Of a stretch of DNA of 55,263 bases, positions 489-17,142 are shown one piece after another (positions within the stretch are counted from its first letter, which is position 1; each line of letters opens with the position of its first letter). A program made the position numbers and the translations under genes. Source of the stretch: Candidatus Falkowbacteria bacterium (lineage in GTDB: Bacteria; Patescibacteriota; Patescibacteriia; Patescibacteriales; UBA12075); assembly GCA_003514005.1 (NCBI GenBank), contig DOSJ01000017.1, positions 1 to 55,263 on the forward strand, written 5' to 3'. The notes beneath the pieces are model-generated. The model was not told the DNA's origin, did not search any database, and worked only from the letters and a program-made list of their open reading frames with translations.

Positions 489-576
489 TTTGCCTAATGT
501 GATATGCGACTACAAGAAATGACAATTTAAATATTCTCCTTTATATAAATTTTTTTCAATTTTATTTTTTAATGCT

Positions 577-906
577 ATGGATTTTAAAGAACTATTACAA
601 TTTATCGACAAACAAGACGGTAAACTTATAAAGAGTTATGAGAGCGGTCATGACAAAGAAAAACGTGTTTTAGCACGAGCCGTCAAACTCGCAGAAGAAA
701 CAGGAGAGCTTTGCAGCGAAGCGCTCTCATACAACAAAAACCAACGTCAAGAAAAACTGGACAACCATAGCGCCAATAGCTTAGCCAACGAAGTTGCTGA
801 TGTTATAATTACGACAATGCTATTAGCAAAAACGACTGACGTGGATATCGAAACAGCATTAAAAAACAAAATTGAAAAAATTAATAAAAGGTTTGAAAAT
901 ATTTAA
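577..906 (+). CDS. MazG-like nucleotide pyrophosphohydrolase
   Basis: LAEETGEL...NEVADV acidic motifs; 109 aa. Confidence 0.85.
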   Translation: MDFKELLQFIDKQDGKLIKSYESGHDKEKRVLARAVKLAEETGELCSEALSYNKNQRQEKLDNHSANSLANEVADVIITTMLLAKTTDVDIETALKNKIEKINKRFENI

Positions 907-922
907 ATTGTCTTTTCTCTTC

Positions 923-1003
923 GTCTAACTTTTTATTTTCCTTTTCTTTATTAGTTGAATAAAGGAAGAAAAATAAAAAGTTCGCATATCACTCTAGTTA
1001 TGT
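923..1003 (+). other. attC-like site, at least its right half
   Basis: GTCTAAC (923-929), an AT-rich hairpin at 927-982, and CATA-TCACTCTA-GTTATGT with the same TA+8nt+GTT spacing as the other attC sites. The left partner is ambiguous (see findings). Confidence 0.55.
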
Positions 1004-2975: not shown

Positions 2976-4217
2976 TTAAGAACAACGTTTTCGACCGGCA
3001 AACGCCAGTCCGATGAGTCCGCTTCCAAAAAGCAGAAGCGTAGCCGGTTCCGGAACAGGGTTCTGTCCGGGATTATCCGGTGCTTTGGTGTAGGTAACGC
3101 GAGTCGCAGAAGTAAAATCAATCGACCCGCCGGCAATAGCGCCGTCCAGTGTCCAATCAATGGTTGAGAGAAAATCCTTGTTTCCTAAATTCAAATAATT
3201 GAATTCGAACTGCGTAGGATCCAGCGAATTAATCCACCCGATCAGACTATCGTTGTTATCCCCGATTTTAGTTCCGGCAACATAGATCAGCCCATCGGGG
3301 TTGATGGCGGCATCGTAAATCTGCGATTCCAAATCAAACCCGTATATATCATCCACACCATAAGCCAGGTTTCCGTCCAGATGCAGGTAGTATGATCTAT
3401 CCGCTGTTGTAGTGAAAGAATTCCCCAGCACATAGATCTCGCCATTTTGCGAAATAATATCCGCAATCATGTCCTCCCCAAACAATCCGCCATAATCAAA
3501 CGTGACTGGCGCTTGATTTCGCTCGCCCTCGCCATTCAGATTGAATATCGCAAGATTGTGATTGGAAACATTGTCATTAGCACCCCGCTGTCCGCAACTG
3601 ACAGCAAGAATAATGTCCCCGCCATTTTGCGTCACAGAAATCCCCGCGATCGATGGCGCTGTCAATCCCAGTCCGCTTAGGTCAAGCGTTTTCATCTGCG
3701 TCCAGACAGGTTGATCATTCGCATCAGTTTTCATCATCTGAACACCTTTGGTGTTATACGAAAAATATATTGAAGTTCCGTCCGCATTTCGAATAGACAT
3801 TTTCGGATACATAACTTCGCCAGAAATTGGCGATTCCCAACTTGATTTTCTAACCGAAGAAGTCAGATTAAAATTAAAGCTTGTAATACCGTTTTTTGTT
3901 GTTCCCGCTCCGGAAAAAACATTAAAATCCGTAATCAAACCGCTGGAATTATAAATTGGTTCAATTGCTCTCGCGCCAGACACTGCTCTCGTTGCTTGGT
4001 ATATCACATTGCCATTTACATCACAACGCACAACTGTATTTCCGCGAAGTTCTACTGTACCAATAAAATTAGAACTGCCTTTTGGCTCAAAAAGACTCAC
4101 AATAATTCCAACTGAACTCCCAGATACAATTTCGGTTGTAATATCAGCGTATAAAAAGCTGATAAAAACAAATAAATACGTAAATACTACAAAAAATACT
4201 CTCAAATATTTTTTCAT
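2976..4217 (-). CDS. PEP-CTERM sorting domain-containing secreted protein
   Basis: Signal peptide MKKYLRVFF... with GGAGAGG RBS upstream of 4217; C-terminal VPEPATLLLFGSGLIGLAFAGRKR (PEP motif, TM helix, basic tail). Confidence 0.9.
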   Translation of the reverse strand: MKKYLRVFFVVFTYLFVFISFLYADITTEIVSGSSVGIIVSLFEPKGSSNFIGTVELRGNTVVRCDVNGNVIYQATRAVSGARAIEPIYNSSGLITDFNVFSGAGTTKNGITSFNFNLTSSVRKSSWESPISGEVMYPKMSIRNADGTSIYFSYNTKGVQMMKTDANDQPVWTQMKTLDLSGLGLTAPSIAGISVTQNGGDIILAVSCGQRGANDNVSNHNLAIFNLNGEGERNQAPVTFDYGGLFGEDMIADIISQNGEIYVLGNSFTTTADRSYYLHLDGNLAYGVDDIYGFDLESQIYDAAINPDGLIYVAGTKIGDNNDSLIGWINSLDPTQFEFNYLNLGNKDFLSTIDWTLDGAIAGGSIDFTSATRVTYTKAPDNPGQNPVPEPATLLLFGSGLIGLAFAGRKRCS

Positions 4218-4336
4218 TTTCCTCTCCTTTGATATTGTGTTTGTCAATGTTCAAATTTATATAAAAATAGCACTATTTAACTAATTTGTCAATACCATAA
4301 ATTAATTGTTTTATTTACATGGCATCAACACATTAT

Positions 4337-14262: not shown

Positions 14263-14499
14263 AAGGAGTGAGATATTTGCATCATCAGACAACTAATTTA
14301 TGCGACTACAAGAAATTTTAGTCTTTTCTTCTTATAATAATTTAATGAAAATGATGTAATTAGTATTTTAAATAATAAATATCCTGATAAATTACAATAA
14401 AAAATTTTAAAAAATCAAATTTTCTTAGATGCAAGATTAGATTATAATTATATAAACAACGAGATAAAAAATTGACATCTAAACTATCTTCTTCCTTCT

Positions 14500-14916
14500 A
14501 TGAACACGAAGCATAAAATTATTCCTAAACTAATTGCTCCCTGTGGAATGAATTGTGGAATTTGTTTGGGATATCTTAGAGAAAAAAATAAATGTCTTGG
14601 GTGTAGAGGAGTTGATAAAAATAAACCCGATGGTTGTAGAAAATGTATAATAAAAAGTTGCCAAATTCTCAAAAATAATAAAATGCTTTTTTGTTCGGAC
14701 AAGTGTGAAAAATTTCCTTGCGCAAGATTAAAAAATCTTGATAAAAGATACAGAACAAAGTATAAGATGAGTATGTTAGAGAATCTTGAGAATATTAAAA
14801 AATTTGAAATTAAAAAATTTGTTAAATTCGAACAAAAAAGATGGAAGTGTCCAAAATGCGGAGAATTGCTTTGTGTTCATAGGGATTCTTGTTTGAATTG
14901 TGGCGAAAAAAGATAG
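14500..14916 (+). CDS. DUF3795-like Cys-rich protein
   Basis: APCGMNCGIC, CLGC, C..C.KFPC and terminal CPKC...C..C; followed by an attC. Confidence 0.8.
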   Translation: MNTKHKIIPKLIAPCGMNCGICLGYLREKNKCLGCRGVDKNKPDGCRKCIIKSCQILKNNKMLFCSDKCEKFPCARLKNLDKRYRTKYKMSMLENLENIKKFEIKKFVKFEQKRWKCPKCGELLCVHRDSCLNCGEKR

Positions 14917-14982
14917 TATATATCACCGCCTTGCGTCATACTGTGTCTCCTTTCAATCGGCATTTTTTCTTGCAGAAAAAAC

Positions 14983-15066
14983 ACATAACAGCGATTATCT
15001 GGTTCGGACTTGCAGTCCTCACCCAAATTTCACTTCGTGAAACTTCAGATAATCGCGATGTTAAAT
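14983..15066 (+). other. attC-like site (84 bp)
   Basis: ACATAAC-AGCGATTATCTG ... CAGATAATCG-CGAT-GTTAAAT; same length and branched layout as 2140-2223. Confidence 0.8.
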
Positions 15067-15198
15067 GAAATTTTATTCAAAAATATTTTTTCATTTTTTA
15101 TTGAGCCCTTTTTGAAATTTTTTTTGGAAAAGAAAAACCCACCGTTCCTTTCGTACTAAGTGGGGTGCATTGAGAGTTATCCGCGAGATTATCACGAA

Positions 15199-15776: not shown

Positions 15777-17142
15777 CTAGTGTCCGGTTAAAATATCCCC
15801 AAAAATAGAAAAAGCCCCTAATTTACGTTATAATATTTGTATCGAGCAAACATTCAACTTAAATTAAAAGGCTATTTCTATGAATTATACTAACACAATT
15901 TTCAATCAATTGCTAAATTTCTTGCCTCGCTGTAAATTCAATCAATTTGTCGGACAGCACGAAAACGATAAATACACGAAACGTTTGACTACGTGGAATC
16001 AATTAGTGGCATTGATATATGCCCAGGCTACTGGCAAAGATAGCCTGCGTGAGATTGAGACCGGTTTCAACTTGAATAAAAATATCTGGTATCATTTGGG
16101 CGTAGGTTCAGTCGCCAGATCAAGCCTAGCGGATGCCAATAGTCGGCGCAGTTATCAGATATTTGAAAAATTATTCTATTCGCTATTAAGACAATTTCAA
16201 GAAATCATTCCCGAGGAAAACAAATTTGATTTTAAAAACCCGCTTTATTCCTTTGATTCTACCACGATTGAACTATGCTTGAATATTTTTGACTGGGCCA
16301 AGTTCCGTACCGCCAAAGGCGCATTAAAAATTCATACCCTTTTAAATAATCGCACTACCGTTCCGGAATTGTTAAATATTACTAATGGCAAAGTCGCCGA
16401 TGTCAGAGCGCTGAAAGAAATGGATTTGAATTTACCGCCACAAAGCGTGATTGTTTTTGATAGGGCATATATCGATTATGATTTATGGGATGAAATTAAA
16501 GAGAAAAAATGGTATTTTGTATCGCGGACAAAAATCAGCCAGAATTTGTTTGTTATCGGACAGCATGATATTGCAAAAACATTGGCTAAAAACATCCTAG
16601 CGGATGAACAAGTAATCTACGGCGATTACACGGCAATGCAGAATCACGGAGATATGGTATTGAGGAGGATTAGATATTACCACGAGAAAGATGAGAGAGA
16701 ATATGAATATTTGACCAATAATTTTGATCTGTCCGCTACTCAGATCGCCGAAATCTACAAACAACGCTGGCAGATTGAATTATTTTTTAAATGGATCAAA
16801 CAAAATTTGAAAATCAAAACATTTCTCGGCACTTCCGAGAACGCTGTAATGACGCAAATATGGGTGGCTATGATTTATTATTTGCTATTGGCGTATATAA
16901 AGTTTCAAACAAAGTTTAAAAAATCACTCTTGGAATTAACCAGAATGATTAGGGAGGTATTGTTAACCAGAAGAGATTTAATAGATTTATTATCCTTGAA
17001 CCTTAATACCGTCCTTAAGCTTAAAAAAATAGATGATAATCCACAGATGAGTTTTTGGTAGAAAGAAGAGTGCTAAGAAATTGTTAATTGAATGAAATTT
17101 GATGCTGGAAATTTAGGTTTTGGAATTTTAACCGGACACTAG
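15777..17142 (+). mobile_element. IS4-family insertion sequence
   Basis: Perfect 18-bp terminal inverted repeats CTAGTGTCCGGTTAAAAT (15777-15794 and 17125-17142); the terminal CTAG may be the target duplication. Confidence 0.92.
15880..17061 (+). CDS. IS4-family DDE transposase (DUF4372-type N-terminus)
   Basis: DSTT, FDRAY and Y..RWQIELFFKWIKQ (YREK-type) motifs. Confidence 0.95.
   Translation: MNYTNTIFNQLLNFLPRCKFNQFVGQHENDKYTKRLTTWNQLVALIYAQATGKDSLREIETGFNLNKNIWYHLGVGSVARSSLADANSRRSYQIFEKLFYSLLRQFQEIIPEENKFDFKNPLYSFDSTTIELCLNIFDWAKFRTAKGALKIHTLLNNRTTVPELLNITNGKVADVRALKEMDLNLPPQSVIVFDRAYIDYDLWDEIKEKKWYFVSRTKISQNLFVIGQHDIAKTLAKNILADEQVIYGDYTAMQNHGDMVLRRIRYYHEKDEREYEYLTNNFDLSATQIAEIYKQRWQIELFFKWIKQNLKIKTFLGTSENAVMTQIWVAMIYYLLLAYIKFQTKFKKSLLELTRMIREVLLTRRDLIDLLSLNLNTVLKLKKIDDNPQMSFW

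Follow-up and report, generated by a model that had tools for sequence, protein, structure and literature searches.

A MazG-family gene in the predicted hairpin loop of an attC-like site, one of a class of long gene-bearing sites in Patescibacteria

The systems closest to the arrays analysed here are integrons (IntI, attI and attC, as in class 1 integrons and the Vibrio VCR), the CTX-phi phage of Vibrio cholerae and the pdif modules of Acinetobacter. Natural attC sites measure 57-141 bp according to PMC5371416, which also calls the way in which integron cassettes first form 'largely unknown'. Their terminal structures are put at 20-100 nt (PMC4889954) or 3-100 nt (PMC7439510), the only ORFs within attC in the account of PMC8876359 are short ones that serve translational coupling, and the integron integrase carries an IntI-specific additional domain (PMC9668308). 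In CTX-phi attP(+), as set out in PMC3089051 and PMC4792948, two inverted dif-like sites pair into a forked hairpin that is recombined with a double-stranded dif-like target by Xer, with neither an I2 domain nor extrahelical bases; the question of how recombination of single strands began ahead of the I2 domain is described as a chicken-and-egg paradox (PMC4792948). Segments of Acinetobacter pdif arrays alternate between inverted Xer-type sites, and both kinds may hold genes or none (PMC13141974).

Here we describe a site that resembles attC in its boxes and predicted fold and holds a whole gene between its arms. It lies in a window of 55,263 nt that is the whole of contig C5 (DOSJ01000017.1) of a Candidatus Falkowbacteria genome of 1.32 Mb in 22 contigs. 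No Rfam family reached its gathering score anywhere in the window.

The MazG cassette and the predicted fold of its site

The array is read here from a short, ordinary attC-like site at 348-443 that belongs to the preceding cassette, folds as a three-way junction (z -3.7) and has its crossover point at G437|T438 (all features located below at the MazG locus and around 14.3 kb are on the forward strand). The MazG cassette follows at 438-997 and consists of a 60-nt empty hairpin body and a 512-nt attC-like site. The body (438-497) is gene-less and GC-rich, with an inverted repeat at 435-450/485-500 and z -7.4, and its start pairs with the R'' end of the same cassette (6/6 complement). The site begins with the box GCCTAAT (492-498) and the left arm L'' (499-509). 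The 5' arm of hairpin 1 (510-576) makes up the entire mazG 5' flank and is complementary to the coding end and 3' flank of the gene, which occupies 577-906 as the cargo of the hairpin-1 loop. The 3' arm (855-918), defined by inverted repeats and the fold, overlaps the last mazG codons. A linker at 919-930, which contains GTCTAAC and is conserved in alignments of sister sites, leads to hairpin 2 (927-982, an inverted repeat that folds) and to the right arm L', spacer and R' (982-1003), with the crossover point at G997|T998. The stretch 998-1004 is perfectly complementary to the R'' end of the cassette that follows (2139-2145), and G997|T998 therefore behaves like a boundary between cassettes. 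That next cassette (998-2223) has the ordinary layout, with a peptidase M28 gene in its body (1072-2046; PF04389), closed by inverted repeats at 1025-1047/2043-2065, and a short attC-like site at 2140-2223 after it. In both the MazG and the M28 cassette R'' is an exact complement of the cassette's own start.

Other features were seen in and around this array. A near-identical second copy of the 438-488 body hairpin lies at 2218-2268, fused directly to an apparent cassette start, and fused junctions of this kind also occur in two other genomes (G108 and G366). A PEP-CTERM protein gene at 2976-4247 has a GC content above its surroundings, in a Patescibacteria genome. In metagenome contigs that match the locus, a transposase-like stretch, read by eye, stands upstream of the array.

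The product of 577-906 (109 aa) is assigned to the MazG family of nucleotide pyrophosphohydrolases on its match to PF03819 (29.6 bits; cut-off 22) and on its acidic residues E40, E41, E44, E72 and D75, which are invariant in 9/9 aligned homologues; in MazG proteins such residues have a role in metal binding. The closest homologues are in Patescibacteria records. The 11 closest that we examined stand in ordinary operons, not in cassettes, and all 12 viral matches are distant.

The claim that this gene lies within an attC-type site came from a reading of the sequence alone, and its geometry held up on closer analysis. The stretch 982-1003 reads L' arm, TA, 8 nt and GTT, like the sites at 348-443, 2140-2223 and 14983-15066, and the left arm proposed at 499-509 is an exact 11-nt complement of 982-992, directly after GCCTAAT. 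Each of the three ordinary sites forms a three-way junction in its fold and has the two internal hairpins that had been stated. The bottom strand of 490-1005 folds in the corresponding way: MazG lies in the first hairpin's loop, 927-982 makes up hairpin 2, and the energy is -85 kcal/mol compared with -45.8 +/- 4.4 for shuffled sequences (z -9.0; none of 100 shuffles as good). The top strand, folded as RNA, also folds well (z -8.1). Two further inverted repeats close hairpin 1, at 508-538/895-925 (84%) and 551-576/855-880 (96%); the 3' half of the latter is within the MazG coding end, and the pairing extends to the base just before the start codon. In these models the gene is thus confirmed to sit inside the attC-like site, between its arms and in the predicted loop of hairpin 1. 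Folded as a circle, the cassette is predicted to form a dumbbell.

On the 3' side of the stem, 44 of the 55 paired bases are coding sequence. The C-terminal residues that they encode are conserved in homologues whose own 5' flanks do not pair; all 11 homologues lack the pairing (-4.9 to -12.1, compared with -39.2 at the MazG site), which suggests that the 5' flank was shaped after the gene rather than the gene after the flank.

The left end of the site is less regular. Its R'' had been read as degenerate, and this is borne out: all eight sister sites show AAC, 6 nt and TA at that position, and all eight have R'' intact with respect to RYYYAAC, whereas the MazG site has GCCTAAT without AAC and a 4-nt spacer, 2 nt shorter. 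The sequence-only reading had offered GTCTAAC at 923 as the true R'' instead, in which case 923-1003 alone should fold as a canonical attC. We found nothing more than a plain hairpin in the fold of 920-1003, and in the alignment of nine sister sites from six genomes GTCTAAC falls on the conserved inter-hairpin linker, so this alternative was discarded. Predicted pairing of the R boxes is 0.0-0.01 at the MazG site, compared with 0.5 at a sister site on contig C4 and 0.75 at the site at 348. In the C4 sister R'' is intact, the L arm is altered on both sides and the ORF is another one, of 72 aa; this site folds with z -7.7. The R'' defect may have arisen by a small deletion or by a fusion; an internal hairpin arm with a similar GCCTAAT is present in a body in G366. 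Judged from the modelled pairing, the MazG copy is probably a poor substrate now, fixed in place and no longer mobile.

The 14.3-kb remnant and a gene-less sister site

The 18-mer at 503-520 was reported to recur exactly at 14299-14316, and these are indeed the only two copies in the window, where 0.07 would be expected; a third copy, with one change, is on contig C4. The 14.3-kb copy does stand after AGACAAC, as had been noted, with 5 nt between the two. The bases that follow it had been matched to the 3' flank of MazG. This likeness is real but weak, and mostly the 5' arm fits better: it is the better match in 7 of the 9 sister sites, with one tie, and the 3' arm is better for MazG only. What had been proposed as an empty partner of the MazG site is instead a left-half remnant of a site of the same subfamily (14283-14340), consisting of an R'' with AAC, the 5-nt spacer, the 18-mer and the start of a 5' arm, and lacking the right half. 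It shows no fold (z -0.47), has no linker, second hairpin or right arm, and lies among other decayed pieces of cassettes, so that the proposal of an empty partner at this place is not supported. A promoter-like match (11/12) precedes it. In G137 the right half of a site has likewise been lost while the left half and the loop gene were retained.

The neighbouring pieces include a remnant of the 3' end of a cassette body with a decayed R'' (14409-14482), whose sequence recurs immediately before R'' boxes in relatives and on C4, and a DUF3795-like gene (a weak match, below the Pfam cut-off) with an ordinary attC-like site at 14983-15066, supported by its fold; these last two (14500-15066) belong to a decayed second array. 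An IS4-family transposase gene (15880-17061) directly follows this array. A search for a partner arm of the 14.3-kb copy within 3 kb gave its best duplex in the start of the IS4 transposase (-15.1; MazG control, -18.9), without linker or hairpin 2, and was taken as chance. A body that carries an antisense gene opens, at 15083-15139, with a flank family that G133 and G051 have in hairpin-1 stems, again in long sites with an antisense gene; one flank type thus occurs in both slots.

Of the 19 matches of the 18-mer in metagenome contigs, 2 are the window's own locus and 17 are in unrelated contexts. A relaxed search of 301 genomes of the order gave 24 matches outside the own genome, which are gene starts reading MRLQE, or chance; most of these starts belong to one conserved protein, presumably ribosomal L5. 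The 18-mer was also considered as the start of a leader peptide, and this was dropped, as the frames stop after 8, 15 and 19 codons and show no further likeness. The left end of the subfamily has 10 matches in 7 of the 301 order genomes, all of one family. In viral contigs the subfamily pattern gave four matches, none of them with a right arm.

A pair of gene-bearing and gene-less sites does exist, in another genome (G169), so that the idea of such a pair stands although 14.3 kb is not a member of it. The two G169 sites have identical arms and an identical second hairpin. The gene-less one measures about 150 nt, folds with z -6.8 and has about 21 pairs in hairpin 1. The sequence of its loop is that of the 3' arm in sisters with longer stems, and its R' is GCT; for these reasons we lean, on sequence comparison, towards a deletion product rather than an ancestral form.

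The existence of a gene-less sister, together with the inverted repeats that bracket mazG, is what could be expected if a small non-autonomous transposon with terminal inverted repeats had taken the gene into the loop of an ordinary attC. We consider this extremely unlikely. The two G169 sisters differ in the stem itself and not by a clean insert. The repeats vary from gene to gene and often include coding sequence, as in the 44 of 55 bases at MazG, and hairpin-1 sequences match cassette bodies in one flank family only, otherwise matching only sister scaffolds.

Long gene-bearing sites as a class

To place the MazG site among its relatives, we parsed, together with the own genome, 92 stretches of 65 other genomes that had been selected on the presence of a recombinase or of several right ends. 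The right-end pattern was present in 15 of 25 genomes of the family and in 72 of 301 of the class, with 3 control matches, and a few matches look spurious. The parse gave 165 paired sites in 48 Patescibacteria genomes and left 53 right ends unpaired. Site sizes are bimodal: 123 sites measure 84-191 nt and 42, in 16 genomes, at least 323 nt, with none between. Three of the 42 were dropped for weak stems, leaving 39 long sites of 323-1117 nt with a closing stem. An ORF of at least 50 aa is present in 35 of the 39 (30 sense, 5 antisense). The four others are L166 7489-7893, L174 1654-2163, L195 and L236, and some of these four have shorter antisense ORFs or possibly non-coding cargo. The own genome has five long sites (two on C4 and one each on C5, C7 and C9; the C7 site is additional to the 165-site table).

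The ends of hairpin 1, whose pairing played no part in site calling, have a median of -28.0 kcal/mol in long sites, compared with -8.4 for swapped ends and -6.9 for an internal control. Stems around ordinary body genes are less regular (21/59). In cassettes with long sites the body tends to be near-empty: it is below 150 nt in 22 of 28 long sites (20/25 with resolved ends after removal of three doubtful calls) and in 0 of 54 short ones, a difference for which the Fisher p of 7e-15 is an overstatement, as the genomes are kin and not independent.

Loop genes are varied. Pfam names 7 of the 32 loop ORFs scanned (GNAT, three NUDIX, GrpB and two cupins). NUDIX genes occur in loops and in one body, and at 27-31% identity these are not the same gene. 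Within the subfamily of the MazG site, nine sites in six genomes each surround another ORF; several of them share 60-90 nt of stem at 79-95% identity, and several of the genes bring their own ribosome-binding site and downstream hairpin. The best hints of mobility, read from sequence, are that in G165 and G133 the first cassette behind attI, next to the recombinase gene, has a long site, and that G137 and G108 have homologous loop genes (43% identity) on the same scaffold with different bodies and at different array positions. Among the fetched arrays we found no identical long cassette in two contexts.

One could suppose that pairing between the 5' flank and the 3' end of the gene acts in the RNA, silencing or stabilising the transcript, with the recombination site incidental; pairing between the 5' and 3' parts of an mRNA is known from type I toxin-antitoxin systems. 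The good fold of the top strand at MazG and pairing right up to the start codon fit such a role, which we nevertheless regard as very unlikely, since the same stems close five antisense ORFs and four inserts without a 50-aa ORF and are always at one position of the recombination-site scaffold. G-T appositions, moreover, lean to the bottom strand (65 versus 45, p 0.07). The bottom strand is the more stable in 122 of 123 short sites and in only 22 of 38 long ones, where the bias is weak.

We prefer to see these stems as parts of a folded recombination site. In predicted equilibrium folds the L arms pair in 35 of 35 long sites, and still in 33 of 35 when the hairpin-1 5' arm is shuffled, so that the idea of a closing stem needed for folding was set aside as unsupported. 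Over positions L-4 to L+5, gap-free pairing is 95-100% in short and long sites; no extrahelical L-arm bases were seen among these sites, for which the caller demanded gap-free arms and could miss bulged ones.

Some observations concern the wider arrays. Array L190 1-7384 (G000:C4:103500-110883) has about ten cassettes behind an attI-like site, without a recombinase gene; it is downstream of tRNA-like genes and includes two long gene-bearing sites, one in first position. In hairpin 2 of many sites there is a -10-like box, and a pyrimidine run pairs with a purine-rich run that resembles a Shine-Dalgarno sequence; from these motifs the hairpin may drive or gate the next cassette. Many contigs of G000 have abundant REP-like palindromes and miniature inverted-repeat elements of 160-175 bp, and these two kinds of repeat dominate a genome-wide inverted-repeat scan.

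The layout of a gene in the loop is real, general and apparently undescribed in print: in largely open-access full-text literature we found no paper on whole genes inside attC or on such arrays in Patescibacteria. About a quarter of the called sites (39/165) far exceed the attC size quoted above and occur with a recombinase without the IntI signature. As the sites exceed that size and the recombinase lacks that signature, searches built on the two would probably miss the long sites.

Recombinase, proposed mechanism and known systems

No recombinase gene stands next to the array in the window. On another contig of the genome (C9), a 286-aa tyrosine recombinase gene is divergent from an array. 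The protein has 25 residues where V. cholerae IntI4 (2A3V) has 67, and thus lacks about 42 of the IntI insertion; it scores 183.9 bits with TIGR02249 (cut-off 265) and passes the XerA-like model NF040815. Nothing in the genome exceeds the TIGR02249 cut-off. Close homologues of the C9 recombinase are found in 44 of 301 order genomes, and a conserved attI-like site lies upstream of the gene on C9 and in most fetched relatives, with the cassettes after it. Sequence comparison thus indicates that a Xer-like recombinase without the IntI insertion stands beside a dif-like attI and such arrays. We assume that the C9 recombinase is the acting enzyme, a second Xer-like gene, on C13, being also present. 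Upstream of that 321-aa Xer-like gene is a palindromic dif-like site (G000:C13:66515-66542), an arm of which resembles the consensus L' arm of the cassette sites. Arrays here lie at attI, and none was seen at the C13 site.

In the 32 loci listed, attI and the start of the first cassette read 11+6+11 and are dif-like when set beside the dif table of PMC3089051, and every site has arm, 6 nt and arm at its left end as well. The ends of a site might accordingly be separate, inverted, double-stranded dif-like Xer sites, with bodies and loops as alternating modules and no folding, much as the C and D modules of Acinetobacter alternate and both hold genes (PMC13141974). Re-assortment of bodies and left arms would then be readily explained: one empty-body family joins several left arms, and MazG-type arms follow several body types. 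Yet right-end spacers are 8 or 9 nt, not 6, in 165 of 165 sites (104 types), although here the search pattern itself demanded 8-9. Left arms match their own right arm at 9 or more of 10 positions in 80 of 83 cases and the previous one in 7 of 83; arm complementarity entered site calling, so that this tally is partly circular. The bottom-strand bias of the short sites and the conserved internal hairpins would also have no role in such modules, and we judge them unlikely.

In the MazG cassette itself the usual gene position is taken by the 60-nt empty hairpin and MazG lies between the arms of the 512-nt attC-like site, and we think it likely that the loop serves as a second cargo slot. When the bottom strand becomes single-stranded, the arms would pair and rebuild a dif-like site, in which the short recombinase would cleave at G|TT. 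Excision would release the cassette as a dumbbell that has the gene and the empty hairpin at opposite ends and could re-enter at attI. The entry point for genes would be the tip of a hairpin-1 scaffold already in place, after which the 5' flank could be rewritten as a reverse copy of the 3' end of the gene, for example by template switching. Template switching is one way in which inverted repeats are made perfect. Counting against loop cargo is PMC8946536, in which long loops are reported to reduce the recombination of integron attC sites by as much as 4 logs in replicative conditions.

A wider proposal is tentative, and we would sooner expect parts of it to fail than the whole to hold: Patescibacteria would have a Xer/dif-derived cassette system, without an IntI domain or extrahelical bases, that works through a two-slot single-stranded dumbbell, with genes swapped at the hairpin tip and their 3' end copied to the 5' flank, and with sites intermediate between CTX-phi-type Xer recombination and integrons. 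If this were true, gene-in-loop sites would be visible records of cassette creation and a living intermediate between the two. One scaffold with nine unrelated genes and a gene-less sister, its junctions and gene-derived stems legible to the single base, makes cassette creation testable, and the long sites bear on how single-strand recombination started before the I2 domain arose.

In comparison with known systems, the arrays share with integrons tandem cassettes bounded by AAC ... G|TT, an R'' complementary to the cassette's own start, and a folded site with bottom-strand bias and a branched terminal structure, known here from predicted folds. All four variable R'' bases match the cassette's own start in 43 of 83 cases and the next start in 5 of 83, a tally that is partly circular, since the match of start and R'' entered site calling. 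As in integrons, attI adjoins a divergent tyrosine recombinase gene and the array reads away from it (as on C9), and arrays without a recombinase gene also occur. They differ from integrons in long sites of 323-1117 nt (512 nt for MazG) with whole genes inside and an empty body, in a recombinase without the IntI insertion and in L arms that pair without a bulged base over 10 positions. Acinetobacter pdif segments alternate in a similar way, but pdif are 28-bp double-stranded sites with arm, 6-bp spacer and arm on both sides. Here the spacer is 6 nt at left ends and attI and 8-9 nt at right ends, each arm co-varies with its partner, and conserved hairpins are part of the site. The forked hairpin of CTX-phi attP(+), recombined by Xer with neither I2 domain nor extrahelical bases, resembles the predicted fold here, and its enzyme the Xer-like one assumed to act. 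That system has one phage site of about 150 bp, host XerCD and chromosomal dif, whereas here there are many sites of diverse sequence, set in chromosomal arrays that have a recombinase gene and attI of their own, and the fork contains genes. Overall, our analysis indicates that these sites would work in the manner of an integron cassette whose folded Xer site resembles that of CTX-phi, yet fall outside the IntI systems.
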